A stretch of DNA of 59,672 nt, taken from the IMG/VR virus record IMGVR_UViG_3300024999_000014, positions 1 to 59,672 of that record; one strand, written 5' to 3'. Positions 10,321 to 59,672 of the stretch are shown one piece after another (position 1 is the stretch's first letter; each line of letters opens with the position of its first letter). This DNA comes from a virus. Both the position numbers and the translations under genes were made by a program. The notes under the pieces are model-generated. The model saw only the letters and a program-made list of their open reading frames with translations. It did not search any database and was not told where the DNA came from.

Positions 10321-10692
10321 ATGGCAGAGAAAGTAACGCTGGAAATAGTGGCTGGTAACGCGCTGGTAAGCGGCAAGAAGGTAACCGTATCAAAGGGTAA
10401 GACGCCGGGGAAACTACTGTTTAACGTAACCCTTAAAGTCTGTAAGGAATTCTCCGTAGTAGGTATCGACTGGGAGGAAAAAGAAACCAGGAGCGCAGGA
10501 AAGGCCGCCGCCGGAGCTATCGCTGGGGGCTTCCTTACGGGTGGCTGGGGTTTACTAGCTGGCGCGGCATTAGGCGGGCGTAAACAGGACAATTCTACAG
10601 CTGTATTAGAGCTGGAGGAAGACGGAAGAAGTTATAGGCTTACGGTGCGTTGCAGCCCTGCGGAGCTTACGAAGTTAAACAGCTGGATATAA
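10321..10692 (+). CDS. glycine-zipper membrane protein (moron-like, own promoter)
   Basis: SD aaggagg. 123 aa with AAAGAIAGGFLTGGWGLLAGAALGG TM segment. Confidence 0.6.
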   Translation: MAEKVTLEIVAGNALVSGKKVTVSKGKTPGKLLFNVTLKVCKEFSVVGIDWEEKETRSAGKAAAGAIAGGFLTGGWGLLAGAALGGRKQDNSTAVLELEEDGRSYRLTVRCSPAELTKLNSWI

Positions 10693-10877
10693 TACTATGT
10701 ATTATATATTTATAAGTAATGAACTATAGATATATATAATAACTATATCTATATAATTTATTTAATAATATATAAGTGTTCTTTTTTCTTAGGGGGGTAG
10801 TTTTATTTTCCTGTCTTATCCGGGGCAGGGATTTAGAAAACTACCCCCTCTAAAATTTTTGGTTTTATATATTTTTA
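10690..10877. repeat. AT-rich tract plus long hairpin module A (inverted partner at 42388-42600)
   Basis: About 90 bp of nearly pure AT, then tcttttttcttaggggggtagtttt...aaaactaccccctctaaaattttt (13-bp perfect stem 10791-10804/10837-10849). Confidence 0.8.
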
Positions 10878-10905
10878 TTTGAGGTAGTATAAAAATAAAG
10901 AAGTC

Positions 10906-10934
10906 TTGATATAATACCTAGTACGGACTATAAT
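10906..10934 (+). promoter_or_regulatory. sigma70-type promoter
   Basis: TTGATA-17 nt-TATAAT. gtagtata motif upstream at 10884. Confidence 0.7.
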
Positions 10935-11968: not shown

Positions 11969-12000
11969 CCCTGGCAGAAATGCCGGGGCCTTTTTCTTTT
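11969..12000 (+). terminator. intrinsic terminator
   Basis: ccctggca-gaaa-tgccgggg hairpin followed by cctttttctttt. Confidence 0.7.
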
Positions 12001-12071
12001 TGTCGCTAGGAATAGGACGGGCAGGCAAGGGAATACAATGTAACACCAAGAGAAAAAAGGAGGGCGCAACC

Positions 12072-13094
12072 ATGAAAAACGCAGCCGCCGACATAGGCTA
12101 CGGATGGACGAAGGCCATAGTAGAAGGCCAGGAAGAAGCCTTTAAACAGCCCAGCGTATTAGGAGAACCTAAGCAGCTATTCGAAGAATCCAGACGGGCT
12201 ACTGACATTATCTATAACGGTAAATACTTCGTAGGCGACCTAGCCCTACGCCATAGCGACGTACGGTACGCCGGGACGAAGGAAAGTAAGCCCGAAACCT
12301 GGACTACCAAAGTACTGCTTAAGGTAGCGCTGGGAATGACAGCCCCGGAAGAATCCGTAAACCTGGTAACCGGGCTACCTATCGACTTCTACCACAGCCA
12401 GCGCGGGGACTTCCGGGACATGATCGGTAAACTAGACCGGGTGCCTTACCAGCTGGAGGTAGGCCGCCGCGTGGTAGACTGTAGCCCGCAAATAGAGAAC
12501 GTAAAAATAGTACCCCAGCATTTAGGGGCCGCTATGGATTACCTGCTAGACAGCCGGGGCCAGGTAGTCGATAAAGGAGAAGCCCGGAAAAGTATCTTAG
12601 TCGTAGACCCTGGTTACTTTACCTTGGGTCTGCTGCCTATCGAAGGTATGGAAATCGGCAAGGAGCGCTGTAGCCCGCCGGGGCTAGGAGCAGACGCCGC
12701 CTATAAACTTATCCAGGATTACCTACGGGAGAAGACCGGGAACGCCCCGGCTAGGTATGACATGGACGCCATTTACGAAAAGGGCGACTACCGGGGCTAC
12801 GACATTAAGCCGCTTTTCTCCAAAGCATTTAAAGCCCTGGCCGGACAAATAGAGCTGGAAGTAGAAAGCCTAAATAAGCGCTACGACATGTACCTGCTGG
12901 TAGGCGGTACAGGGCTGCGTATTCGGGAATACTTAACGCTGCCTAATCTATTGATGTTACCAGACCCCCAGGCGGCGAATGTACGGGGCTACCTAAAGAT
13001 AGCGGCCCGGTTATGGGGTACCCACGACGACGGAATAGTACGGCTACCACACAGAAAGGCAGGGGCTAAGCTATGGGGCAGCGTAAGCGGCTAA
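12072..13094 (+). CDS. parM: ParM/StbA-family actin-like segregation ATPase
   Basis: SD aaggaggg + ATG 12072. AADIGYGWTKA (phosphate 1) and VVDPGYFTLG motifs. About 340 aa. Confidence 0.7.
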   Translation: MKNAAADIGYGWTKAIVEGQEEAFKQPSVLGEPKQLFEESRRATDIIYNGKYFVGDLALRHSDVRYAGTKESKPETWTTKVLLKVALGMTAPEESVNLVTGLPIDFYHSQRGDFRDMIGKLDRVPYQLEVGRRVVDCSPQIENVKIVPQHLGAAMDYLLDSRGQVVDKGEARKSILVVDPGYFTLGLLPIEGMEIGKERCSPPGLGADAAYKLIQDYLREKTGNAPARYDMDAIYEKGDYRGYDIKPLFSKAFKALAGQIELEVESLNKRYDMYLLVGGTGLRIREYLTLPNLLMLPDPQAANVRGYLKIAARLWGTHDDGIVRLPHRKAGAKLWGSVSG

Positions 13095-13372
13095 AGGTAA
13101 TGGCTGAACTTCGGAAGGGGAAGGACGACGATATTAAAGCCGCCCTGGAGGAATCCGACAAACTTAACGACCGTAGCGACGTCATAAGGGCGGCTTTAAG
13201 GTTTTATTTTAGCCTGGGGGGTACAGATATACTAAAAAGACCCCTAGAACACGACACGCGACAGGCTGGGGCGAGTACGGGCTTAATTTTAGAAGACGTT
13301 ACACTGGGCAGAACACAAAAAGGCGCCGAAGCAATCGACGCCGAACTGGATAACCTGCTGGGGGAATTCTAA
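13073..13372 (+). CDS. RHH-type DNA-binding protein, ParR-like adaptor candidate
   Basis: Overlaps the parM 3' end. RSDVIRAALRFYF ribbon-helix-helix signature. Confidence 0.45.
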   Translation: MGQRKRLKVMAELRKGKDDDIKAALEESDKLNDRSDVIRAALRFYFSLGGTDILKRPLEHDTRQAGASTGLILEDVTLGRTQKGAEAIDAELDNLLGEF

Positions 13373-13449
13373 AAATGAAATACGGCGGGGGCGCCGTACG
13401 CCATAAGCGCGATACCGACAGCGATTTTAATTAAAGCGGCTACTGGCAT
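13369..13449 (-). CDS. 26-aa hydrophobic peptide (type I toxin-like candidate)
   Basis: Minus-strand ATG preceded by aaaggaag SD. Encodes MPVAALIKIAVGIALMAYGAPAVFHF. Minus-strand TATAAT at 13477-13482. Convergent with, and overlapping, the ParR-like stop codon. Confidence 0.35.
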   Translation of the reverse strand: MPVAALIKIAVGIALMAYGAPAVFHF

Positions 13450-13473: not shown

Positions 13474-13503
13474 TTGATTATAGTATGTCACGACTTCTAT
13501 ATT
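13474..13503 (+). promoter_or_regulatory. promoter (TTGATT-18-TATATT) with early-type dyad remnant
   Basis: tatagtat...cgacttctatatttctatacta resembles the early promoter motif. Confidence 0.5.
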
Positions 13504-13524: not shown

Positions 13525-13614
13525 ATGTTTAGTTTTGACGTTTACATGGGCGTATTTTTTGTCCTAGTAACGCTAGGCATAGTTTGGAAAGGGGGGCGCC
13601 GTAATGCTGGTTAG
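13525..13614 (+). CDS. 29-aa membrane peptide
   Basis: Strong SD tagggggg. Encodes MFSFDVYMGVFFVLVTLGIVWKGGRRNAG. Confidence 0.35.
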   Translation: MFSFDVYMGVFFVLVTLGIVWKGGRRNAG

Positions 13615-14062
13615 GGTAAACGGTAGAATATGGAACCAGCCGGAAGTACTGGCCGTACTAGAAATAACAGAACCTACTACCCTGGATAAGGTAGCTGCGC
13701 ACGTTAAACGGAACTACCGGACGTACCTGGCAGCTGGCTACACTATCCTAATGGTAATACAGCCTAGTACGGCGCTGGCTGCGGGTAACATGAACGGCGG
13801 TATACGTCTTATACTGCTTATGCAAAAAGCGTCGTTTTGGGTAGGTATGGGCGTAACGATATGGGGAATCGTAGAAGCCCAGCTAGATTACCCAGGCTGG
13901 AAAGGCCGCGTACTTAAAGGCGTGCTGGGATACATCGGTATCCTGCTGGTGCCGCTGGTGTTCTTAGAGCTGCAGAACAGCCTACAGGTAGACGTATGGA
14001 ACCAGCTACAGGGAGCTACGACGCCGGATATGACGCCGAAGGCGCCGACCGTAACACAGTAA
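13604..14062 (+). CDS. secreted/membrane protein with TrbC/VirB2-like topology
   Basis: Signal-like segment ...ILMVIQPSTALAAG followed by two hydrophobic helices separated by a short polar loop (FWVGMGVTIWGIV / VLGYIGILLVPLVFL). Confidence 0.4.
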   Translation: MLVRVNGRIWNQPEVLAVLEITEPTTLDKVAAHVKRNYRTYLAAGYTILMVIQPSTALAAGNMNGGIRLILLMQKASFWVGMGVTIWGIVEAQLDYPGWKGRVLKGVLGYIGILLVPLVFLELQNSLQVDVWNQLQGATTPDMTPKAPTVTQ

Positions 14063-14074
14063 GGGGGTAGCGTT

Positions 14075-14794
14075 ATGGGCCTAAAGATAACCGCCGGATA
14101 CCAGGCCGTAGACAACGTACACAAAGTACCGCATAGCGGCGTAGATGTAGCCATACCGACCGGGACGCCTTTAGTAAGCGTAGGTACTGGGGTAGTCGAA
14201 AAGCTGGTAAACTACGGCGACCAGAATATAGGTAACGGGGTATTTGTTAGGCTTATAGACGGTACCCAGGTAGTCTACGGGCATTTATCTAAGGTATCGG
14301 TAGTAAAGGGGCAGCCCGTCATAAAAGGGACGGAAATAGGACTAAGCGGCGGGCAGCCTGGAACGCCAGGCGCCGGGCACAGTACCGGGCCACATTTACA
14401 CCTACAGGCGTACCAGGGCGGGCGGCTGATAGACCCTACGCGCTACCTGGAAAGCGCCGTACAGACTTCGCAGCCTACAGCTGGCGGGCCGGATTTACTG
14501 ACCGGGGCAGCTATCGGCGTGTTATTCGTGGTACTTATGCTAGTGGTAGGGGGTAAGAAGATGATTGTAACGCCTGTATCTATTATCGTTATGGTAGTCC
14601 TGGCTGTATTTTTCGGCCCGGCCATATGGACGAAGCTAGGCTTTCTTTTTGCTGGCGGGTACCTAGACGTCCCGCTAATGGTGGGTACCATAGTCTGTAT
14701 ATGGCTTTTACAATTCGGGGCTAAATGGCCTAAGAAGTATATCGTATGGGGCTGGCTACTATTTTGGGCATTAAGGGGGTTTATTTTCGTATGA
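14075..14794 (+). CDS. M23 metallopeptidase fused to a 4-TM membrane domain
   Basis: HSGVDV (HxxxD) and GPHLHLQ (HxH) motifs. Four C-terminal TM segments. Confidence 0.8.
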   Translation: MGLKITAGYQAVDNVHKVPHSGVDVAIPTGTPLVSVGTGVVEKLVNYGDQNIGNGVFVRLIDGTQVVYGHLSKVSVVKGQPVIKGTEIGLSGGQPGTPGAGHSTGPHLHLQAYQGGRLIDPTRYLESAVQTSQPTAGGPDLLTGAAIGVLFVVLMLVVGGKKMIVTPVSIIVMVVLAVFFGPAIWTKLGFLFAGGYLDVPLMVGTIVCIWLLQFGAKWPKKYIVWGWLLFWALRGFIFV

Positions 14795-17430
14795 TTATAA
14801 AAGTAAACGGTAGGGTACTATTTAGGCATACGTCGGACGACTTCGTAACCTTCGAGCTATCGCCAACGACCAGCGTAAAGAATAACCAGGCTTATGTCCT
14901 AGCGAAGGTTATAGCTGACTGGTACCGGAAGCCTTCGGAACTTCGCAGCTGGGGGAAAGGTGCTGCTCTTACCTTAGACAGCCAGCAGCGCGTAAACTTC
15001 CGGGTAGTCCTTAAGCCGAAGGAAATACGCTTTTACATGTTGGTACCCAGGGAACGGGTCGGGGAAATCTTAAGGAAAGCAGAAGCCGTTTACCACGAAA
15101 ACATAAGCATAAACGAAGTAGAGCAGCTACCAGGCCTAGACCCTAAGCTAACCGTATGTAGCGAACTAAGCTACCGTAAGCACGACATATTTAGCCTGGC
15201 GACTGATAAGGACAATAACTACCCGTTACCCAGCTTATTAACCGCCGTACGGACGTTAGAAGGTGACGACGTAGCCATATTCGATACGCTGCTGGAGCCT
15301 TACGACCGCTACGTATGGATAAAGGAAGCGAAGAAGGCCGTAACCCAGCTGGAAAAGGGGTACGTCCCGAACTCAAAAGTAAGCAACAAAGTACTGCAGC
15401 TGGTACACGAATTCTTTAACGGTCTGCGCTTCGGTCTGCTGGAGATAGGGGCGGTAACCAGGGAACAAAAGTTAAAGCTTAAGAAATGGCGCCGGGAAGA
15501 TACCCAGTACCTAGAAGCGGCCCTTATACTTAAGGACATGGCCCCAGCGTCGAAGAAGAAGCAGGCCGACGAAGTAGTAAGGGCCTGGATACGGGTAGCC
15601 GCCCAAAGTGAGAATAAGGACAGGGCGAAAAGCGCCGTACGGACAATGGCGAACGCCTGGAAGGACATAAGCCTGGACAACGACCTGGAGATAATCGAAA
15701 TACCGGATAAGTGGACGCCCAGGTATCTTACGGCCATAGAACAGCGGAAGCCTTTAAGTATTCGCATGCGGCCCGTGAAGCTGGGAACCGACGAAGCCGG
15801 GAAGTTTCTACAGCTACCAGGGCGGGCTATTATCGAGGAATTCCCGGAGATACAGGCCCGGAAGCTGCGGGAAGTACAGATAAGCCCGGAGCTAACCCAG
15901 GAAGCAGGCGTACGAATCGGCTGGGTAACCGAACGGGGAGCGCGTAAGCTAATCAGAATACCTACTAACGCCTTCGGGGATATTAAGCTAGCCGCCGTAT
16001 ACGACGCTTTATGTACGGCGTCCTTCGGGCAGGGAAAGCAGGGCAGCGGTAAAACGGACGGCTTCGGTACGACCTGGGCCTACGACATGGTACTGGCGGG
16101 CTTTACGGTAATAATTATGGATACCGCCGACGGCCAGGTACTGCGGAACTTCGTAAACTGTTTACCGGAAGACTACCCGGAAGAAAAGCTGCATTTATTG
16201 AACTACGATAATAAGGCCTGGCCCATACCGCTAGGCTGGGACGATGTTTACGGGCGGGAATTCGGGGCGGTAGGCGACGAAGAACTAGCCGCTATGGAAA
16301 TCCAGGAGCGCGTAACCATCAGGCTAATAAGCTTTATCGGTAACCTATCGGCGACCGGAGAATTTACCGACCGCATGAAGCAGTACGTCGTTAGTGCTAT
16401 GCGGGCAATAACCCGCCGTAAGGTATGGGACTTTTCAGACCTGGAACTAGCCCTAACCAGCCCGGCTTACCGGGTAGAATTACTAAGGATGCCGGAAGTA
16501 CAAAGCATGCCAGACGTCGTACGCGACCTTAACACGCTGCAGGTTAAGGCTGCCGACGGGAAGGAAGGCCAAATAATAGAATTTATTCTTAACCGTATTC
16601 GTGTACTTAGTGGTACCCAATTCTTAGCTAATGTATTCTTCCAGCCCCCTAAGCGCCAGGAAGACGGTAAGCCGCTGCTGGATATACGCCGTACAATGGA
16701 TAACCCGGAAGGCGGCTACGGACACGTAGTATGTATCCAGGCAAGCGGCGACGCCTGGCAGGGCCTGCAGCCTACTATACTGGGCTTTATGCTGGATAAG
16801 ATTAACTTTAACGCCTTTAGCCGAACGGATACCGAGCAGAAAGACCGTAAGCCCTGCATGGTATGGATAGACGAACCGCACAAGATCATAGGGGCCATAG
16901 AAGGCGACCTAAGCGGGACAGCTGTAGAATTTCGAAAGTACCGAGTAAAAAACCTATTTACTGGGCATAGTATCGAACAAATGGGAAAAGCCGCGAACGC
17001 TTTACTAGACGGCGGCGCCCAGGTAACGAGCTACAAGACGGAACGACTGGCCGAACTTAAGCGCTTCGCCCATGCCTTTAAGCCCTATGACGACGCCGAA
17101 GAACTATACGACGCGTTGCCGGAGAAATGGCGGGCGATAAACGCCGTACGGCTGCCCAGCGGGAAAACCTGCCCGGCGTTTATCGCGGACATGGTACCGC
17201 CGCCTACAGCTGTAAAAGACCGGGGCTACTGTTGGCAAGAAAGCGCAGAAAAGTATGGCAGGCCCTGGAAGGAAGTAAGGGACGTAATACAGGAGAAGCG
17301 CAGCCAGTACGCCAAACTTGACGCCGAATGGTTAGAGGACAGAGAAGAAGAGAAAGCAGCGGCTAAGCAAGCCGAGCGGGACGCGAAGAAAGTAGAACGA
17401 GAAACGAATAAGGGAAAGCGGGCGGGGTAA
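14791..17430 (+). CDS. large P-loop ATPase, VirB4/VirD4/HerA-FtsK superfamily (T4SS-like)
   Basis: ATGA-coupled start. Walker A GQGKQGSGKT, Walker B CMVWIDEPHK, then EFRKYRV..TGHSIEQ (RKY-type motif of this superfamily). Confidence 0.55.
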   Translation: MIIKVNGRVLFRHTSDDFVTFELSPTTSVKNNQAYVLAKVIADWYRKPSELRSWGKGAALTLDSQQRVNFRVVLKPKEIRFYMLVPRERVGEILRKAEAVYHENISINEVEQLPGLDPKLTVCSELSYRKHDIFSLATDKDNNYPLPSLLTAVRTLEGDDVAIFDTLLEPYDRYVWIKEAKKAVTQLEKGYVPNSKVSNKVLQLVHEFFNGLRFGLLEIGAVTREQKLKLKKWRREDTQYLEAALILKDMAPASKKKQADEVVRAWIRVAAQSENKDRAKSAVRTMANAWKDISLDNDLEIIEIPDKWTPRYLTAIEQRKPLSIRMRPVKLGTDEAGKFLQLPGRAIIEEFPEIQARKLREVQISPELTQEAGVRIGWVTERGARKLIRIPTNAFGDIKLAAVYDALCTASFGQGKQGSGKTDGFGTTWAYDMVLAGFTVIIMDTADGQVLRNFVNCLPEDYPEEKLHLLNYDNKAWPIPLGWDDVYGREFGAVGDEELAAMEIQERVTIRLISFIGNLSATGEFTDRMKQYVVSAMRAITRRKVWDFSDLELALTSPAYRVELLRMPEVQSMPDVVRDLNTLQVKAADGKEGQIIEFILNRIRVLSGTQFLANVFFQPPKRQEDGKPLLDIRRTMDNPEGGYGHVVCIQASGDAWQGLQPTILGFMLDKINFNAFSRTDTEQKDRKPCMVWIDEPHKIIGAIEGDLSGTAVEFRKYRVKNLFTGHSIEQMGKAANALLDGGAQVTSYKTERLAELKRFAHAFKPYDDAEELYDALPEKWRAINAVRLPSGKTCPAFIADMVPPPTAVKDRGYCWQESAEKYGRPWKEVRDVIQEKRSQYAKLDAEWLEDREEEKAAAKQAERDAKKVERETNKGKRAG

Positions 17431-19378: not shown

Positions 19379-20827
19379 ATGGCTATCGGTATAACCGCCG
19401 TACGTATTCGGGGCTTCCGTAGTCATGTCGATACTTACGTAAAACTTACACCTATCGGCCTAAATGTTATTACCGGGAAAAACGACAGCGGTAAGACGGC
19501 CTTACTACAGGCCATACGCTGGGTAGCCCTGGGGGAGCCGGAAGGCGAAGAGTTCCTTTTCACAAAGAGGGACGAAGCCGGGGAAATAATCGACCAGGCC
19601 GAAGAAGCTTACGTAATGCTGGAACTTTCGACCGGGGTAACCGTGGAGAAGACCCGGCGCCGGAAGGGAAAGACGAAGTACAAACTATCGACTATACCGG
19701 AGCCATTCGAACAGGCCGCCGTACCCGACGAAGTAAAGGCAGCGCTGGGAATACGTACTAAGTACTTCGGGGATTATCAGACAGACTTAAATTTCGCGTA
19801 CCAACTAGCCGCACCTTTCCTAGTCAGTGAAACGCCCAGCGCGGGGGCTAAGGTACTGGGTACCCTAGCTGGAACGGAAGCTGTAGACCTGGCGATAAAA
19901 GGAACAAGTAAAGACCAGTACGCCGCCCGGACAGCCAGGCAGCAAGCCGACAAGGACGCCCAGCAACGGGAAAAAGACCTGCAGCAGTATGTAGACCTAG
20001 AACAGCTTAAGGAAGCTTACGGGGCCTGCGAATACCTACTAAGCGAAGCGGAAACCGCCACGCTAAGAGGGGAAAAGCTAAGTACCCTATACATTAAGCT
20101 TTACGAACTACAGGGCGCCGTATCAGACGCCGAAAAGGAACTAGACCGCTTAGCCGACGTACCCGAACTAGCTAAAGACATGGAGGACATAGGAAAGGCC
20201 CAGCAGCGATACGAACGCCTGCTAGACCTTTACGAAAGGAAGGGAAGATTAGACCAAAGTATAGGCCAGTGGGTAGACCAGCTAGAGAAATACGCCGCCC
20301 TACCGCTGACCATTGCGTATCTAGAAGACGCTGAGGGGAACCAGGTAAAACTAGATACCTTAGCTAGGTTATCCTTCTTAGGTACGGAATATACCCAGGA
20401 CGTAGAACAGGCAGCCGAAATACTGGAAAAGACGATAGACCTAGATATACGGGTAGACGACTTACGTACTATCGAAGCGCTGACCGATAAAGCAGACAAG
20501 TTATGGAATATCGAAAATCTGTACAAAATACGGCGGCTGCGCGTAGATCAGATAGCGGCCAGCCAGAAACTACTTACCCACGTACCAGAAGCGGCACTAC
20601 AGCTGCAGGAAGCTATTAAGCTGCAGGACAAGCTTACCAGGCTGTACGAAGTATCCAGCAGGCATACCCTAAAGGCTACGACCTTAAAACGGGCCACGGC
20701 TTCCGAGATTACAGCCAGCGGCGACGCAGAACGCTACCAGAAAGAGCTAGCCGCCGCCTGGGACGCTGCCGGGGGTAGCTGCCCACTATGCGACCAGCCC
20801 GTAGGTAAAGGGGGCTGTAGTCATTGA
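19379..20827 (+). CDS. Rad50/SbcC-like ATPase, N-terminal half (Walker A + coiled coil + zinc hook)
   Basis: GFRSH...ITGKNDSGKTALLQAIRW, a long coiled coil, and CPLC hook (20780-20791) about 12 aa from the C-terminus. Confidence 0.7.
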   Translation: MAIGITAVRIRGFRSHVDTYVKLTPIGLNVITGKNDSGKTALLQAIRWVALGEPEGEEFLFTKRDEAGEIIDQAEEAYVMLELSTGVTVEKTRRRKGKTKYKLSTIPEPFEQAAVPDEVKAALGIRTKYFGDYQTDLNFAYQLAAPFLVSETPSAGAKVLGTLAGTEAVDLAIKGTSKDQYAARTARQQADKDAQQREKDLQQYVDLEQLKEAYGACEYLLSEAETATLRGEKLSTLYIKLYELQGAVSDAEKELDRLADVPELAKDMEDIGKAQQRYERLLDLYERKGRLDQSIGQWVDQLEKYAALPLTIAYLEDAEGNQVKLDTLARLSFLGTEYTQDVEQAAEILEKTIDLDIRVDDLRTIEALTDKADKLWNIENLYKIRRLRVDQIAASQKLLTHVPEAALQLQEAIKLQDKLTRLYEVSSRHTLKATTLKRATASEITASGDAERYQKELAAAWDAAGGSCPLCDQPVGKGGCSH

Positions 20828-21345
20828 AAAACAAGTTTACTGAGTATACCCGTAAGACGGGGGTAGAAATACCGTTTAAGGGCCAGGTACTTACGCTGCT
20901 GGTAGATAGCCAGGACTTAAAGGCGCTGGACTTAGCCGCCGATAAATGGGGAATTTACACCGACCGCCAGGGCTGCTACTTCGCCCGAAGCGATAAAGCC
21001 AGCAGCCAGCATATGGCGCACAAACTACTATTCGATATTCCAAAAGGCTGTAAGCTTGAATGGATTAACGGGAACACCTTAGACCTTCGGCGGGCTAATC
21101 TGAACATGATACAGCCAGACGGTACCCGTGTACCGATGTTAATACCGGAACCGGAAGAAGAACAGCCGCTAGAATACACGCGTACCAGCGACGTAAAGGG
21201 CGTCTACTTCCATAAGGCTAGCCAGAAATGGCATAGTACGGCCTGGCATTGTGGTAAGCGTTATAGCATGGGGTATAAGCCGGACACGCCCGAAGGTAAA
21301 GCGGCAGCCGAAGCCGCCGTAGAAGAATTCCGGGCTAATCACTAA
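20824..21345 (+). CDS. degenerate HNH (HNH_3-like) plus AP2 DNA-binding domain protein
   Basis: HKLLFDIPKGCKLEWINGNTLDLRRANL (catalytic DH replaced by EW). AP2-like VKGVYFHKASQKWHSTAWHCGKRYSMGY. Confidence 0.55.
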   Translation: MKNKFTEYTRKTGVEIPFKGQVLTLLVDSQDLKALDLAADKWGIYTDRQGCYFARSDKASSQHMAHKLLFDIPKGCKLEWINGNTLDLRRANLNMIQPDGTRVPMLIPEPEEEQPLEYTRTSDVKGVYFHKASQKWHSTAWHCGKRYSMGYKPDTPEGKAAAEAAVEEFRANH

Positions 21346-21617: not shown

Positions 21618-22409
21618 ATGGGATTATCCGACTTAATGAGGGGCCGCCAGTTAGGTAAGACGGCCACGACACAGGCCAAGGTAACCGCAAAGGCTACAGG
21701 CGGTACCGTAACCATGGTAGCAGAACTGGTACACGTAGTAGGCGGTACGTATCGCTTAGACAAGGCCCGCGCAGACGCTAAGCAAATAGGCGAACGCCTG
21801 GCGGTAATGGTGGGAAAGCGCGACCTTCTACAGCAGCAGCTAGACGACGCCGTACTAAGGCGCCTGGAAGCGCAGCATAACCTAAGTGTTTACGACAAAG
21901 TACTGGTACTGCTGCAGAAGACCAGCGAGTACGCCAGGGAGCAGGTAAAAAGCCGAATTGAAGAACTGGTAACTACAGCCCTTAACGTCGTCTACGCCCG
22001 CCCTTATCGTTTCTGGATGGTATTAGACATAGCGGCAGGTAAGCCAGTAGCCGAATACTGGGTAGACATTGAAGGGGTACACGTACAACTTAAGCCGCCG
22101 GACTACGGAAAAGGCGGGGGAGTTATCGACGTCGTAACGGTAGCCCTACGGCTGGGAATATTTGAGCTGGAGCAGGAGCAGGGGCCGCTATTCTTTGACG
22201 AAGTAGGTAAGCATATCGACAAATGGGCAGCGCCAGGACTAGCCTACTTCCTACACGAATACGGGCAGAAATTTGAACGGCAAATAGTCCTTATTACGCA
22301 CAGTAGCCAGCTGGCGGCGTCTAGCGACCTGGCAGTAAAGCTGTACCAGGAGAAGGGCCGCAGCTACACGACTAGCAAAATAGAGGACGACGAAGGGGGC
22401 GCCGAATAG
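21618..22409 (+). CDS. Rad50/SbcC-like ATPase, C-terminal half (signature, Walker B, H-loop)
   Basis: Coiled coil, then GKGGGVIDVV (signature-like), PLFFDEVG (Walker B), LITHS (H-loop). Confidence 0.65.
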   Translation: MGLSDLMRGRQLGKTATTQAKVTAKATGGTVTMVAELVHVVGGTYRLDKARADAKQIGERLAVMVGKRDLLQQQLDDAVLRRLEAQHNLSVYDKVLVLLQKTSEYAREQVKSRIEELVTTALNVVYARPYRFWMVLDIAAGKPVAEYWVDIEGVHVQLKPPDYGKGGGVIDVVTVALRLGIFELEQEQGPLFFDEVGKHIDKWAAPGLAYFLHEYGQKFERQIVLITHSSQLAASSDLAVKLYQEKGRSYTTSKIEDDEGGAE

Positions 22410-39897: not shown

Positions 39898-41196
39898 TCA
39901 GTCAGCTTTGTGTAAACGAGAAACTCTTCCCTTGGATTGAACATAGAACTCAGGAATCATTCCAATGGGTAGTTCGATTAGACTCAAACTCTTATCAATT
40001 CCCTTTGGTGGCTTAACAGACTGAGTAATTTTCTTCTTCTTACCGAACAACATTTTAACTCTCAACACCTCGAAAGAATATCCTCTACCCATACGATTTG
40101 TAGTTCTGATTAGGTTATTAAATGACTCTGTATAAGCGTTCGTAAGGGGCATGTCAAAGTAGTTGGTTATCTCTTCTTGCCAGTTCTCAAAGGTCTTAGC
40201 TAATGGATTGAATGAGTGTGCAATATCCTCTGTGATTAACGATTTCCATTGCTGAAACTGTTCAATAGCAATCTTCTTATCACCTGACTCAAAGATAGTA
40301 TAGAACAGTTCTTTAAGGCAGTAAGCGTTGTACAGGGAAGGGTAGTGGTCAACCCAAGAGTCTAATATCTCATTCTCTCTTGCAGAAAGGGTGTGCTTAC
40401 GCCTTAGAAGGATAAAACGGTCATGTAGCAAGGTTGTCCTAGTCCTGCCTGTCAGATTGGCTCTTGTCTCCTTTCTGATGGTATCCAGAGCGTAATTAGC
40501 AAGCCTGACGATGTGGAACTTATCAACTATAACCTTGGCATGAGGTAACAGTTCGTTACAGACAATCTTATAGGGTCGCCACATATCCATTGTGACGTAC
40601 TCTACATGTCTTCTCTTAGGGAGTTTTAAGAACCAAGCGTAGACTTCTGCCTTAGTTCTTCCAGGTAACATGTCAATCAAAGAATTGTTCACGATGTTCG
40701 TAATAACGCATCTAGGGGCTTTGATTATATGGATTTCATCAATACCTATCCAGTTAGGGATAACTGGCTTATAAGCCTTATTTAGCCCTCCTGCGTAGGC
40801 GTGGAAGATGTTACGGATAGTCTTCTCATGAAGTCCAATATCCTCTGCAAGACTAGTGAAAGTTTTAAGCAATGACTGTTGCTGAATGTACGTTACAAGG
40901 CGTTTGGTTGCCATATGACTATCATCCATATCAGGAAGTTCTTCACGAAAGGTAGAACCGCAATCACGACAGATATACCTTTGACGGTCAACAAAGACAC
41001 AGACACGCTTACCCCTTATAGGGATGTCCATATAGGATTGAGTCTTTTTACCGTACTTAGAGAGGTTGTGTTGCCTTACGCTACCGCATTTCTGGCAACA
41101 GATAGGTGCATCCTTCATTTCAGCCTGAATACGAAAGACGGTATCAAGTTCATTAGATTCGGTAGTGTTTAAACTCTTTAATCCTAGAATGTCCAT
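39898..41196 (-). CDS. ISL3-family DDE transposase
   Basis: N-terminal zinc finger CQKCGS...CRDCGS, GIDEIHI, VTMDMWRPY, VDKFHIVR, TNAYTESFNNLIR...GRGY. Confidence 0.9.
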   Translation of the reverse strand: MDILGLKSLNTTESNELDTVFRIQAEMKDAPICCQKCGSVRQHNLSKYGKKTQSYMDIPIRGKRVCVFVDRQRYICRDCGSTFREELPDMDDSHMATKRLVTYIQQQSLLKTFTSLAEDIGLHEKTIRNIFHAYAGGLNKAYKPVIPNWIGIDEIHIIKAPRCVITNIVNNSLIDMLPGRTKAEVYAWFLKLPKRRHVEYVTMDMWRPYKIVCNELLPHAKVIVDKFHIVRLANYALDTIRKETRANLTGRTRTTLLHDRFILLRRKHTLSARENEILDSWVDHYPSLYNAYCLKELFYTIFESGDKKIAIEQFQQWKSLITEDIAHSFNPLAKTFENWQEEITNYFDMPLTNAYTESFNNLIRTTNRMGRGYSFEVLRVKMLFGKKKKITQSVKPPKGIDKSLSLIELPIGMIPEFYVQSKGRVSRLHKAD

Positions 41197-41339
41197 AAAT
41201 CAAATCCTTTCTGGGAGGTGTTGCATGACCTATTCTGAGTAATCGTGACTATCTGAATGAGAATCGAAGAATATGAACAATAATTGAAGATTTTGAATAC
41301 GAATGTGTTTATTTGGTTGAAAACGGAGAGAGGTGTTAA

Positions 41340-41543
41340 ATGAATGGATATTTATTACCCATGTGTTTACCAATATGTCCAACTAGTGCTTCACATGGGG
41401 AGATGATTCTAAGACAACAACTAGGTCAGACTTACGAACAAAAATTCTGTGGTACATGGTATGACTGTCCAAAATGTAGTTCATCCGTCCTGTTTCAATC
41501 TAAAGAACTTCAGGAGTTCTTAAAATCTCAAAAAGGAGGATAA
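41340..41543 (+). CDS. IS passenger ORF 1, Cys-rich (zinc-ribbon-like)
   Basis: 67 aa, C..C...C..C spacing, SD ggagagagg. Confidence 0.45.
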   Translation: MNGYLLPMCLPICPTSASHGEMILRQQLGQTYEQKFCGTWYDCPKCSSSVLFQSKELQEFLKSQKGG

Positions 41544-41549
41544 GCAAAA

Positions 41550-41912
41550 GTGTATAGTCATCCAAGTTTAACCTGTCTATATGGCACTAAAATCGGTTCT
41601 AAAGCCGTTTATGAGGATGCTCAGATAGTTGCTAGGGCATTGAGAGACTGTATACCTCAAAACATACCCTTACCGTTCTCTAGTATCCTAAAAACCACTT
41701 CTTCAAAGGGTAAAAAGAAATCGATAAAAGCTGTCTTGGAAATGTTTGATGGTAAGCATGACACTATCAAAGTCTCAACATGGGGGTATTTAAATTCGTG
41801 GTCGCTTCAATGGATTCTCACAAAGGATAGTGGCAGTAGCTTTAATTGGGACGGAAACAAGTGGATAAGGATAGACGAATCGTTTTGGAGGGATGAAGAT
41901 ATTGACTTATAA
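41550..41912 (+). CDS. IS passenger ORF 2
   Basis: 120 aa, GTG start after SD aaaggagg. Confidence 0.45.
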   Translation: MYSHPSLTCLYGTKIGSKAVYEDAQIVARALRDCIPQNIPLPFSSILKTTSSKGKKKSIKAVLEMFDGKHDTIKVSTWGYLNSWSLQWILTKDSGSSFNWDGNKWIRIDESFWRDEDIDL

Positions 41913-42141
41913 ACCAACTCCAGGTTTCTTCGACCTAACCGAAAAACCTAAAGACATGACCACTAAGACACATAAAAAAATACAACAACACCAAATGATG
42001 TTGATTGCGGAATCAGAGAAATATAAAGACCCAGAAGTAAGAAAAAACAATTGGACAACCTTTGAAAAACTAAGGGAATACATGGCTCAGCTTCAATCAA
42101 TCATACTTACTCATTATCCTCATGAAATGCTCTTCAAGTAA
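41893..42141 (+). CDS. IS passenger ORF 3
   Basis: 82 aa, overlaps ORF 2. Confidence 0.4.
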   Translation: MKILTYKPTPGFFDLTEKPKDMTTKTHKKIQQHQMMLIAESEKYKDPEVRKNNWTTFEKLREYMAQLQSIILTHYPHEMLFK

Positions 42142-57872: not shown

Positions 57873-59672
57873 ATGTCTAACCTTTTCACTATGGGCGCTC
57901 AAATAATTCTAAATGACGCATTTACGCCGCGTATTAATACTGCGGAAAGGGCTTCCCGTAGTTTTCGGGAAAGTTTGTTTAGTCTTAAAGGCGCCCTAAC
58001 CGCAGTAGCTGGTAGTATGGCAATAAAGGCAAGCTTCGACTGGCTGGTAAAGGGTAACGCTGATATGGAAACGTACCAGAATACCCTAGCTATAGTCATG
58101 GGCAGCCAGGAAAAGGCGGTAGAAACGCTGGCCTGGGCTAATAAGTTCGCCGCGTCAACGCCATTTGAAATACCGCAAATTGTTGAAGCCACTACACGTA
58201 TGAGCGCTTACGGACTTAATGCACAAAAGACATTAGGCATTGTAGGCGACATGGCTAGCGTAATGGGTAAAGACCTTATGCAGGCTGTAGAAGCCGTAGC
58301 CGACGCGCAGACCGGAGAAGTAGAACGGCTTAAAGAATTCGGTATCACGAAAGGCATGATACAGCAACAAGCTAAAATGCTGGGTTCTAACCCCATAAAT
58401 AACCAGGGACAAATAACCGACCAGAAAGCATTTAACGCAGCCCTGTTTAGCTTAATGGAAAAGCGGTATAAGGGCGGTATGGACTTACAAAGTAAAACGT
58501 TTAAAGGCATGATGTCGAACGTACAGGACTTCGTAAGTAGCGCCGGAAGGACTTTAGGAAAGCCAATATTCGACGCGCTAAAGTCTGGCTTAAGCAGCAG
58601 CCTGGACTGGATGAATAAGCTGCAGGGAAGCGGGGCTATTGACGCAGCCGCTAACGAAGTGGCGTACTTCGGTAAGCTTGTAGGCGGGGTATTTTCTTCA
58701 TCGTTTCAAGTAGCTAAGGATAATGTAGATATGATAAGCGGTAAGCTTATAGTATTTTACAATACCCATAAGCCGCAGATAGATGCCGTAGGACAACTAA
58801 TTCAAAAGGTATTTACGGATTTATGGACTACTTCCTCAGAAGTACTGGATTGGCTACGAACTAATGCACTACCAGGTGTAATAGATTCCCTTACCACTGT
58901 AGGTGGCTGGGTGCTAAATATCGCTAGTTTCTTTAACGATAACTGGAGTACCATCAAGCCACTAATCGAAGGTATAGCTATTGCCTGGGGAATTTTCATA
59001 GGGTACCAGAAAGCCGTAGCATTAGCTACCCGTATATCTACAGCAGCACAATGGGCATGGAACGCGGCTATGAGTGCAAATCCAGCGGGCCTAATCGTTA
59101 CAGCCATCGGGCTACTAATCGGTGCGGGTATCTTGCTATACCAAAATTGGGATACGGTAAAACAAGGTGCCGCTGACTTGTGGGTATCAATTAAAAATTA
59201 TTTTGCTTCTGGTGTAAATTTCGCTATAGACAAATTAAATTGGCTTATCAGTAAAATACAGTTAGTACCAGGCTTCGGGGATACCCCGCTAATAGCCAGA
59301 ATGGAACTAGACACGTCAAGCAATACCAGCGCCGACGGTATGAAAGCGGCCCGAAGTATGGACTTAGGTATTGATGGTAGCAATAAAAACGGCCTAAGCT
59401 ACGTACCATACGACGGGTATATATCCGAACTCCATAAAGGCGAAATGGTGCTAACAGCCAAAGAAGCTGACCGTATGCGGCAAGGCATTACAGCTGGTAC
59501 CGGGGCGCTTGCTGCTGGTGTACCCGGCTTGCCTGGAATGTCCGGTGCTGCTGGTGTACCCGGCTTGCCTGGAATGTCCGGTGCTGCTGGTGTACCCGGC
59601 TTGCCTGGAATGTCCGGTGCTGCTGGTGTACCCGGCTTGCCTGGAATGTCCGGTGCTGCTGGTGTACCCGGC
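57873..59672 (+). CDS. tail tape measure protein, N-terminal 600 aa (runs off window end, continues at 1..367)
   Basis: SD aagggggt + ATG. No stop to the window end. The TP901-type TMP core (...TLAWANKFAASTPFE...GDMASVMG...) ends in the (GAAGVPGLPGMS)n repeat. Confidence 0.85.
   Translation, partial: MSNLFTMGAQIILNDAFTPRINTAERASRSFRESLFSLKGALTAVAGSMAIKASFDWLVKGNADMETYQNTLAIVMGSQEKAVETLAWANKFAASTPFEIPQIVEATTRMSAYGLNAQKTLGIVGDMASVMGKDLMQAVEAVADAQTGEVERLKEFGITKGMIQQQAKMLGSNPINNQGQITDQKAFNAALFSLMEKRYKGGMDLQSKTFKGMMSNVQDFVSSAGRTLGKPIFDALKSGLSSSLDWMNKLQGSGAIDAAANEVAYFGKLVGGVFSSSFQVAKDNVDMISGKLIVFYNTHKPQIDAVGQLIQKVFTDLWTTSSEVLDWLRTNALPGVIDSLTTVGGWVLNIASFFNDNWSTIKPLIEGIAIAWGIFIGYQKAVALATRISTAAQWAWNAAMSANPAGLIVTAIGLLIGAGILLYQNWDTVKQGAADLWVSIKNYFASGVNFAIDKLNWLISKIQLVPGFGDTPLIARMELDTSSNTSADGMKAARSMDLGIDGSNKNGLSYVPYDGYISELHKGEMVLTAKEADRMRQGITAGTGALAAGVPGLPGMSGAAGVPGLPGMSGAAGVPGLPGMSGAAGVPGLPGMSGAAGVPG
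59510..59672. repeat. 36-bp in-frame tandem repeat (4.5 copies) at window end
   Basis: Units at 59510, 59546, 59582, 59618 and 59654 (19 nt), identical to the unit at 1-105. Confidence 0.95.

Follow-up and report, generated by a model that had tools for sequence, protein, structure and literature searches.

The stretch of DNA analysed here, referred to as the window, comprises the 59,672 nucleotides of IMG/VR virus record IMGVR_UViG_3300024999_000014, and positions 13526-17430 within it form a four-gene, tightly translationally coupled operon that ends in the gene for a large ATPase. We tentatively read this cassette as an early accessory operon whose products assemble in the cytoplasmic membrane into a small complex driven by ATP and descended from the inner-membrane core of a type IV secretion system (T4SS) or conjugation machine, and we put the probability of this reading at about 45%. 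Three of the four genes had been described in an initial annotation of the sequence, which named transfer of the plasmid prophage first among its possible roles.

The operon and its four products

The three open reading frames (ORFs) of the initial annotation were all confirmed, at 13604-14062 (152 amino acids), 14075-14794 (239 amino acids) and 14746-17430 (894 amino acids), and they are real and coupled as proposed, but a fourth gene on the same plus strand had been overlooked. This first gene of the operon (13526-13614) encodes a 29-amino-acid peptide with a single transmembrane segment, MFSFDVYMGVFFVLVTLGIVWKGGRRNAG; it has a strong ribosome-binding site, AGGGGGGA, 5 nucleotides upstream, overlaps the start of the next gene (P1) by 11 nucleotides, and is conserved at the protein level in Bacillus phage vB_BboS-125, where it is unannotated, and in loci L010 and L009. 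P1 is separated by 12 nucleotides from the second large gene (P2), which has a GGGGG ribosome-binding site ahead of it. For the ATPase, the most likely start is the ATG at 14791, giving a protein of 879 amino acids (14791-17430), since an AAGGGGG ribosome-binding site precedes this codon, which overlaps the P2 stop codon in the sequence ATGA, and since residues 1-15 of the longer form are unstructured in the structural model (pLDDT <50). The promoter that had been assigned to the operon does not hold up as well: the sigma-70-like candidate at 13474-13503 (plus strand, TTGATT-18-TATATT) is weak, matching only 9 of 12 consensus positions, and promoter-like sites in the region were no more frequent than in shuffled controls (10 vs 8.9 +/- 2.9).

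An exact 12-nucleotide repeat, GGGGGCGCCGTA, occurs at 13387-13398 and at 13592-13603. The upstream copy is the 3' arm of a hairpin just past the stop codon of the preceding ParR-like gene, while the downstream copy directly abuts the ATG of the P1 gene and overlaps its ribosome-binding site. The repeat could permit alternative pairing.

The ATPase consists of an N-terminal domain of ~400 amino acids, for which no family match was found, followed by an ATPase domain with an all-helical insert. Its Walker A motif (GQGKQGSGKT, 16027-16056), Walker B motif (WIDEPHK, 16861-16884) and EFRKYR motif (16927-16944; in full EFRKYR...HSIEQ) are all conserved, with Walker A (G435/K436), Walker B (D709/E710) and EFRKYR...H..Q invariant in 37 close homologs, and with G-K, D-E, the lysine of RK and the histidine invariant or nearly so in 60 members at ~20% identity. 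Because the catalytic motifs are kept at this level of divergence, the family is, as judged from sequence, an active ATPase under selection. The protein matches phrog_5156, a family without an assigned function, over almost its entire length (E 2.1e-116, amino acids 27-852 against profile positions 22-809 of 824).

When the AlphaFold2 (AF2) model of the ATPase (pLDDT 82) was compared with the PDB using Foldseek, the top ten matches were all TrwK/VirB4 chains from the R388 T4SS (E 9.6e-11 to 6.4e-7 over 920-1005 columns), with global TM-scores of only 0.22-0.31. Matches restricted to the ATPase domain followed at ~1e-5 and included TrwB (5.7e-6; TM-score on target 0.52), Cag-beta (~0.5), HerA (6e-6) and DndH-C, and a 457-residue chain from the R388 entry reached only 4.7e-4. 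Since full-length VirB4 gave better E values than chains limited to the C-terminal domain, the N-terminal domain of the model appears to contribute to the VirB4 match, which is suggestive of homology to the VirB4 N-terminal domain.

Sequence profiles pointed to the same broad class. A profile of 60 family members searched against PDB sequences reached DptH/DndH-C (5.5e-6), HerA (1.5e-4), DotL (0.004) and TrwB (0.012), while single-sequence and close-family profiles gave no match in the same database; RecA, the top match of the 60-member profile, was discarded as an artefact of six concatenated P-loops. The family member of Clostridium phage phiCp-D passes the Pfam TrwB_AAD_bind model (22.4 bits vs 20.5), and two distant members (P0280 and P0178) gave sub-threshold matches to coupling-protein models (TrwB_AAD_bind / T4SS-DNA_transf). 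The only Pfam models touched by distant members were those of coupling proteins, and the Pfam T4SS VirB4 models were unmatched by the ten distant members searched. The ATPase sequence contains no hydrophobic segment that could serve as an N-terminal transmembrane anchor.

Several other identities were considered and rejected. The initial annotation had held that the ATPase is not the packaging machinery, and we agree: synteny with vB_BboS-125 gp65 shows that the phage encodes a terminase of its own, no FtsK_SpoIIIE match was found in Pfam, and a library of viral folds returned FtsK/A32-like packaging ATPases only at E 0.8-2.5. No family or fold match to a replication initiator or helicase was detected, and by synteny the phage carries its own primase-MCM, polymerase and UvsW-type helicase. 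Among eight proteins searched with PADLOC, no known defence ATPase was matched, the single hit being a spurious Cas12c at 0.0055. Apart from these, the viral fold search returned only other Bacillus-phage members of the family (phage JL at 3.5e-48 and phage G gp156) and one HerA-like protein. Taken together, fold and architecture, as modelled, support placing the ATPase in the VirB4/VirD4/HerA clade, whereas membership of the cassette proteins in the VirB4, VirD4 and VirB2 families fails curated sequence tests.

P2 carries a Pfam Peptidase_M23 domain (PF01551; E 1.5e-20, 73.6 bits vs a 28.7-bit cut-off, amino acids 19-121), and its catalytic and zinc-binding residues, namely HSGVD (HxxxD), the histidine of GH and HLH (HxH), are conserved in 8/8 fused homologs. 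The domain thus looks catalytically competent by sequence, unlike degenerate LytM regulators; its nearest NCBIfam models are DD-endopeptidases (ShyA and MepM), with scores far under their cut-offs. The C-terminal membrane module follows the pattern YWxNPV, transmembrane helix, GAxWPKK, transmembrane helix. As the initial annotation had stated, the window protein has about four transmembrane helices in this part; most relatives have two, leaving two extra in the window copy. In the prophage relatives L012, L013 and L016, the corresponding gene encodes 104-112 amino acids of membrane module only (E 8e-12 to 2.5e-6), so M23 is an optional N-terminal fusion rather than a defining part of the cassette; SPP1 gp31.2 and GBK2 gp31 are similar in size to these M23-less proteins. 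A membrane protein of ~105 amino acids occupies the VirB3 position in the cassette. When only the membrane domain of P2 served as query, a word-indexed search for homologs retrieved nothing. According to the positive-inside rule, both basic loops of P2 would be cytoplasmic and the M23 domain would lie outside.

In alignments of P1, the N-terminus is variable and leads into a basic stretch and then a hydrophobic segment, after which come a conserved AxAA and two long helices. The long leader ends in ALAA, and helices 1 and 2 are joined by a basic loop, PGWKGR; the AF2 model (pLDDT 72) places helices at residues 38-52, 64-94 and 99-138. The layout is that of VirB2/TrbC-type topology, including an unusually long leader with a putative cleavage site. 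A protein of this layout is also encoded ahead of the ATPase in SPP1 (gp31.1), GBK2, SPO1 (gp29.1) and CP-51 (gp97), as well as in Thrax2, phiCp-D, plasmid pCLJ and an Alicyclobacillus plasmid. Window P1 has no family match in Pfam, PHROG or NCBIfam and does not reach TrbC (PF04956) or T4SS_pilin (PF18895). For 6/10 distant P1-like proteins, however, one of these two models was the best Pfam match, always below cut-off: the pCLJ protein came closest (TrbC at 1.5e-5, 25.6 bits vs 27.9), followed by CP-51 (T4SS_pilin at 1.2e-3) and by GBK2, SPO1, L025 and SPP1 (0.02-0.1). The TrbC/VirB2-like character claimed for P1 is borne out in its topology.

The N-termini of window P1 (MLVRVNGRIW; 13604-13633) and of the ATPase (MIIKVNGRVLF; 14791-14823) share an M-h-h-K-V-N-G motif, and KVNG-type N-termini also occur in the second membrane proteins of SPP1 (MDIKINGQKI; L003, from 2334) and L023 (MIVKVNGTVI; from 7660). 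As the motif is sporadic and lacking in most other family members, it was rejected as a shared family feature.

Distribution and genomic neighbours of the cassette

An exhaustive profile search recovered 757 clusters of the ATPase family at 50% identity, nearly all of them 730-950 amino acids long and matching both domains. By sequence, the family is compact and does not merge with canonical VirB4 or VirD4; it corresponds to PHROG 5156, and some homologs carry the label DUF8128 (PF26449). Using tblastn, we detected a family ATPase in 109 to 146 phage records. Two of these belong to the strictly virulent phages SPO1 (gp27.4) and SPP1 (gene 32); others are CP-51, Tsamsa/Thrax, phage G, TP-84, GBK2 and D6E. 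The ATPases of SPO1, CP-51, GBK2 and SPP1 align with that of the window over nearly their full length at 22-24% identity (E 1e-27 to 1e-44). The ATPase was also found on 52 plasmids, 44 of which are typed as non-mobilizable and the others as merely mobilizable; the cassette is thus spread across phages and plasmids, and among related phages its distribution is accessory and patchy. When collections of genomes and viral contigs were scanned for the pattern of the locus, only close relatives were recovered.

Save for one marginal match in Microcystis, the hosts are all endospore-forming Bacillota, comprising Bacillus, Geobacillus, Lysinibacillus, Brevibacillus, Paenibacillus, Alicyclobacillus, Thermoactinomycetaceae, Clostridium and Terrisporobacter. 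No phage of Staphylococcus, Listeria, Streptococcus, Lactococcus or Enterococcus was matched among the phage records searched with tblastn. SPO1-like phages do exist for several of these non-spore-forming genera. Genes for Spo0E-like sporulation regulators are located no more than a few kb from the ATPase in vB_BpsM-61 (L049, 4996-5139) and in a metagenomic contig (L025, 1-45), and these neighbours may bear on the restriction to spore-forming hosts.

The frequency of each component was estimated with local hidden Markov models (HMMs) over ~20 distinct lineages. A P1-like gene lies upstream of the ATPase on the same strand in ~18/20 lineages; the custom HMM detects window P1 at 1e-33 and also matches at loci that had not seeded it (TP-84 at 4e-23, vB_BpsM-61 at 4e-19 and PBC1 at 3e-14). 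A fused M23 domain, by comparison, is present in 3/20. The invariant core is the pilin-like P1 plus the ATPase, small transmembrane proteins being counted with it, and the frequent options are M23, an upstream actin- or tubulin-like partition gene and a downstream MOB_C-type (Replic_Relax) protein. The 100-kb Alicyclobacillus dauci plasmid NZ_CP104066.1 (L020) carries four separate ATPase matches, one of which belongs to a window-like cassette that also includes small ORFs and an M23 peptidase.

Upstream of the operon, the ParM-like neighbour reported initially was confirmed as an actin-like (ParM/ALP) partition ATPase gene at 12000-13094 (plus strand), matching Pfam ALP_N at 6.5e-21 and phrog_691 ("partition protein") at 6e-43. 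The end of this gene is overlapped by one for a 99-amino-acid protein (13073-13372, plus strand), designated ParR-like by position and size, which has no Pfam match and has homologs in vB_BboS-125 (gp18), L011 and L013. By analogy with Thrax gp12 (PMC9703825) and SPP1 gp31, this protein is a putative ribbon-helix-helix (RHH) adaptor; no clear centromere-like repeat array was found adjoining the pair. An ALP/ParM gene, or a tubulin-family gene in its stead, lies within ~6 kb of the ATPase in ~9/20 lineages, and about half of the lineages, including SPP1, GBK2, TP-84 and PBC1, have no partition gene nearby. In L028, a tubulin-family gene (PF00091; 1074-2102) occupies the ParM position upstream of the cassette, which is a non-orthologous swap of the cytomotive partner.

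On the downstream side, Replic_Relax follows the ATPase directly (SPO1, CP-51, Thrax2, L026 and L041) or lies nearby (phage G) in ~6/20 lineages. Replic_Relax represents the MOB_C relaxase class in CONJscan terms (PMC5357655) and has a PD-(D/E)XK nuclease fold (PMC3424549). Phage G encodes two adjacent ATPases of this fold class, the "VirB-like" gp155 and the family member gp156, and close to them, on the opposite strand, is a gene homologous to SPO1 gp27.3 (Replic_Relax). This locus (L051, 120-944 and 4255-8397) may represent the system in a more complete form with two ATPases.

The window itself represents a complete phage genome (~59.5 kb). Because the first ~100 bases recur at 59510 (59510-59672), the contig closes on itself, and the genome is either circular or circularly permuted. 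It is colinear with vB_BboS-125 (genus Elmenteitavirus) at ~75% DNA identity across the region, and its three large ORFs are syntenic with gp19, gp20 (lytM) and gp21 of that phage. No integrase was recognised in the scanned parts of the window or in the syntenic vB_BboS-125 annotation, and the close relatives of the phage are prophages integrated into chromosomes. In both phages, the cassette lies downstream of an endolysin-holin cassette and the ParM-like gene, and its position between lysis and replication genes suggests that it is expressed early.

Three further features of the window lie outside the operon. At 10680-10934, ahead of the early region, an AT-rich stretch with many inverted and direct repeats is followed by a promoter-like site (11/12; 10906-10934), and an operator, origin or centromere may be located here. 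An SbcC-like ATPase gene is seemingly split into an N-terminal part (AAA_23/SMC_N, 19379-20827) and an SMC_N C-terminal piece (21618-22409), with a 173-amino-acid ORF (20824-21345) between them, and the equivalent gene of vB_BboS-125 is annotated as an AP2-domain protein. Finally, a complete ISL3-family transposase gene is present on the minus strand at 39898-41196 (DDE_Tnp_ISL3 at 3.3e-66, plus helix-turn-helix and zinc-ribbon domains). It lies in the only low-GC stretch of the window (40001-42000; GC 0.396 vs ~0.50) and looks like an insertion sequence element that entered the phage genome.

A proposed membrane complex and its alternatives

In the mechanism that we propose, P1, the 29-amino-acid peptide and the two-to-four-helix module of P2 would insert in the membrane with their short basic loops toward the cytoplasm, and the soluble 879-amino-acid ATPase, with its two VirB4-like domains, would oligomerise on these loops. 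Where an M23 domain is present, it would face outward and cut peptidoglycan cross-links locally, allowing the complex to span the thick wall. The client would most likely be the phage's or plasmid's own DNA, which a neighbouring ParM/ParR-type filament could bring to the membrane and which, in larger phages, the MOB_C-type nuclease encoded just downstream might process. We infer complex formation, topology, cargo and any direction of transport, and handling of the element's own DNA is probable given the linkage to partition motors, RHH proteins and MOB_C nucleases.

The idea of a translocon is not new, as it has already been proposed for SPP1. According to Godinho et al. (2018), SPP1 can do without genes 31.2 and 32, the early promoter PE5 drives their transcription in an operon shared with lysis genes, and the C-terminus of gp32 matches TrwB, VirB4 and FtsK by HHpred; they proposed that gp32 and gp31.1 and/or gp31.2 form a transmembrane translocon whose role "remains to be established" (PMC6316719). 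In Tyrovirus, ParM, an RHH protein, a "T4SS protein" and a replication-relaxation protein have been interpreted as a block derived from a conjugative plasmid (PMC9703825), and in B. pumilus phages, TrbC/VirB2, Replic_Relax, an FtsK/SpoIIIE-family protein and RHH have been annotated as remnants of a plasmid lifestyle (PMC9658697). The cassettes compared here (SPP1 gp31.1-gp31.2-gp32, GBK2 gp30-32, SPO1 gp29.1 and gp27.7-27.4, and Tsamsa/Thrax gp13-17) encode true homologs of the window ATPase, with shared gene order and early-region position. Compared with the SPP1 type, the window cassette fuses M23 and two extra transmembrane helices to the second membrane protein and has ParM/ParR directly upstream, where SPP1 has none; compared with the SPO1-like and Tsamsa-like versions, it lacks their Replic_Relax gene. 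Its local variations are the M23 fusion with extra helices and the conserved 29-amino-acid peptide.

With the VirB2-VirB3-VirB4 core of T4SSs, exemplified by TrwL-TrwM-TrwK of R388, the window cassette has in common the order of a leader-bearing two-helix protein, a small membrane protein and a large two-domain ATPase, the Walker A, Walker B and RK...Q motifs and, when VirB1 is included, a wall hydrolase. It differs in that VirB6, VirB8, VirB9, VirB10, VirB11 and VirD4 are missing and the carriers are phages; moreover, where T4SSs use a lytic transglycosylase, the window has an M23 endopeptidase, fused to the protein in the VirB3 position. The TrwA (RHH)-TrwB (VirD4)-relaxase unit offers a second comparison. 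Here, an upstream putative RHH-type protein and the all-helical ATPase insert are shared, but the likeness extends to a downstream MOB_C-type protein only in the SPO1, CP-51, Thrax and L026 versions, and unlike TrwB the window ATPase has a soluble ~400-amino-acid N-terminal domain in place of a transmembrane anchor.

Minimised conjugation systems of Gram-positive bacteria, such as ICEBs1 ConC/ConD/ConE with CwlT, pCW3 TcpD/TcpE/TcpF with TcpG, and pCF10 PrgI/PrgJ with PrgK, likewise have two small membrane proteins encoded just upstream of a VirB4-type ATPase and need a dedicated peptidoglycan hydrolase for the thick wall. They also need, however, a VirB6-like protein, a VirB8-like protein, an FtsK-like coupling protein and a relaxase, and their ATPases match Pfam AAA_10, unlike that of the window. 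In the archaeal Ced DNA import system, the two-helix, pilin-related membrane proteins CedA/A1/A2 and the VirB4/HerA-class ATPase CedB suffice to move DNA, showing that a minimal set of three to four genes of this kind can work. Ced is a chromosomal system of archaea that imports DNA between cells and has no wall hydrolase, and the likeness to the window cassette proposed here is one of gene-set layout.

A number of observations weigh against the membrane complex that we favour. The initial assignment of the ATPase to VirB4, coupling proteins or HerA stands for its motifs and fold, but the window protein reaches no Pfam or NCBIfam model, including those for T4SSs (AAA_10, CagE_TrbE_VirB), and even the 60-member profile reaches VirB4 (4ag5) only at E 0.24. 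The pilin assignment of P1 never attains a curated cut-off, the Foldseek search of its model against the PDB gave nothing below E 0.7 (coronavirus M proteins and K2P channels lay above this value), and a profile of diverse P1-like proteins against PDB sequences retrieved no pilin. Ten P2-like proteins gave no VirB3/TcpE/PrgI signal in Pfam, and the M23 domain has no signal peptide in its sequence, leaving its exit route from the cell without an explanation. The window contains no further polytopic membrane protein, and hence nothing like VirB6, VirB8 or VirB10, nor does the syntenic vB_BboS-125 annotation; a coupling protein with a transmembrane anchor is likewise absent from the window, as is a Replic_Relax-like ORF at E <= 10 with the custom HMM. 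Among the 52 plasmids that carry the ATPase, not one has been typed as conjugative, the SPP1 cassette genes are non-essential (PMC6316719), and we found no functional study of, or experiment on, any family member in the literature. As the SPP1 cassette is dispensable for plaques, its benefit would lie in conditions outside standard laboratory growth.

The cassette could, conversely, be a plasmid-type maintenance module that exports nothing, in which the ATPase and membrane proteins tether or segregate DNA together with ParM/TubZ and the RHH adaptor, and in which the likeness to T4SSs reflects ancestry only. This would fit the linkage to ALP or tubulin partition genes and to Replic_Relax, the predominance of non-mobilizable plasmids among the carriers, the published interpretation as a plasmid-derived replication and segregation block (PMC9703825, PMC9658697) and a window genome that is circularly closed and has no recognised integrase. 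We nevertheless consider it unlikely, if deserving of serious attention, since roughly half of the lineages lack a nearby partition gene, close relatives are chromosomally integrated, virulent SPO1 and SPP1 retain the cassette, and a tether confined to the cytoplasm would have little use for an M23 domain that cuts the wall or for a hairpin protein with a signal. Quite unlikely, in our view, is a role in superinfection exclusion or competition between elements, whereby an early membrane complex would block or expel competitor DNA or remodel the wall to remove receptors. The SPP1 cassette is indeed early, non-essential and membrane-located (PMC6316719), its presence varies among related phages as that of an accessory element would, and the ATPase has defence ATPases of the HerA/DndH type among its structural neighbours. 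The defence systems built on such ATPases (DndH/DptH, Sir2-HerA, DUF4297-HerA and TdpAB) share the ATPase-domain fold and motifs with the window protein; they differ in their N-terminal domain and in having an effector partner, whereas the window ATPase has membrane-protein partners. No PADLOC defence model was matched and no effector (nuclease, Sir2 or DUF4297) is adjacent, exclusion proteins are usually small while the cassette is a conserved multi-gene machine of ~1300 amino acids, and exclusion leaves the linkage to partition and MOB_C genes without an explanation.

The missing signal peptide of M23, a domain that must nevertheless act outside the membrane, would be accounted for if the ATPase and P1 exported or activated this enzyme, or further proteins of the phage, so that the wall is weakened ahead of lysis or for progeny release, and the proximity of the cassette to endolysin-holin genes in the window and vB_BboS-125, like the lysis genes in the SPP1 PE5 operon (PMC6316719), is in keeping with such a role. 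However, because M23 is fused in only ~3/20 lineages while the ATPase and P1 are constant, it cannot be the main cargo, and as the window phage already has a normal endolysin-holin pair, we regard a secretion or lysis accessory as improbable. The least probable explanation is the one that led the initial annotation, conjugative transfer of a plasmid prophage. A T4SS-class ATPase, a pilin-like protein and a wall hydrolase are present, larger relatives encode a MOB_C-type protein, and the genome is circular with ParM/ParR, but the window lacks a relaxase, a membrane-anchored coupling protein and VirB6/VirB8-type channel proteins. These missing genes and the conservation of the cassette in strictly virulent phages disfavour transfer as its raison d'etre, as do the typing of the carrier plasmids and the chromosomal integration of close relatives; in SPP1, moreover, the cassette is early and dispensable. 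The initial annotation had anticipated that universal presence in strictly lytic relatives as a known replisome or lysis component would tell against its interpretation of the trio: the cassette does occur in such phages, although not as a known component of either kind.

The restriction of carriers to spore-forming Bacillota suggests one further version of DNA handling, which is speculative and which we consider distinctly unlikely, though less so than a secretion accessory. The cassette could be a virion-independent DNA-delivery device of elements in endospore formers, in which ParM/TubZ pushes the genome to the pole and the ATPase complex and hydrolase pass it across the septum. Its destination might be the forespore, making it a phage counterpart of SpoIIIE that serves spore entrapment, or a neighbouring cell in a chain. 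If true, septum delivery would account for carriers confined to spore formers, for retention by virulent phages and for dispensability in exponential cultures.

Whichever reading applies, a T4SS-class ATPase with pilin-like partners is encoded among the early genes of SPP1 and SPO1, which rank with the most thoroughly studied phages of Gram-positive bacteria, and of well over 100 further phages, and our analysis separates the core of this cassette from its optional parts and shows that it is shared with non-conjugative plasmids. Should the membrane complex move DNA, some four proteins would suffice for a minimal translocon, bearing on the evolution of conjugation machines and on phage spread or spore persistence without virions. 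Should it not move DNA, the cassette would represent a new membrane-anchored maintenance or exclusion device. Either reading is directly testable in B. subtilis with existing genetics.

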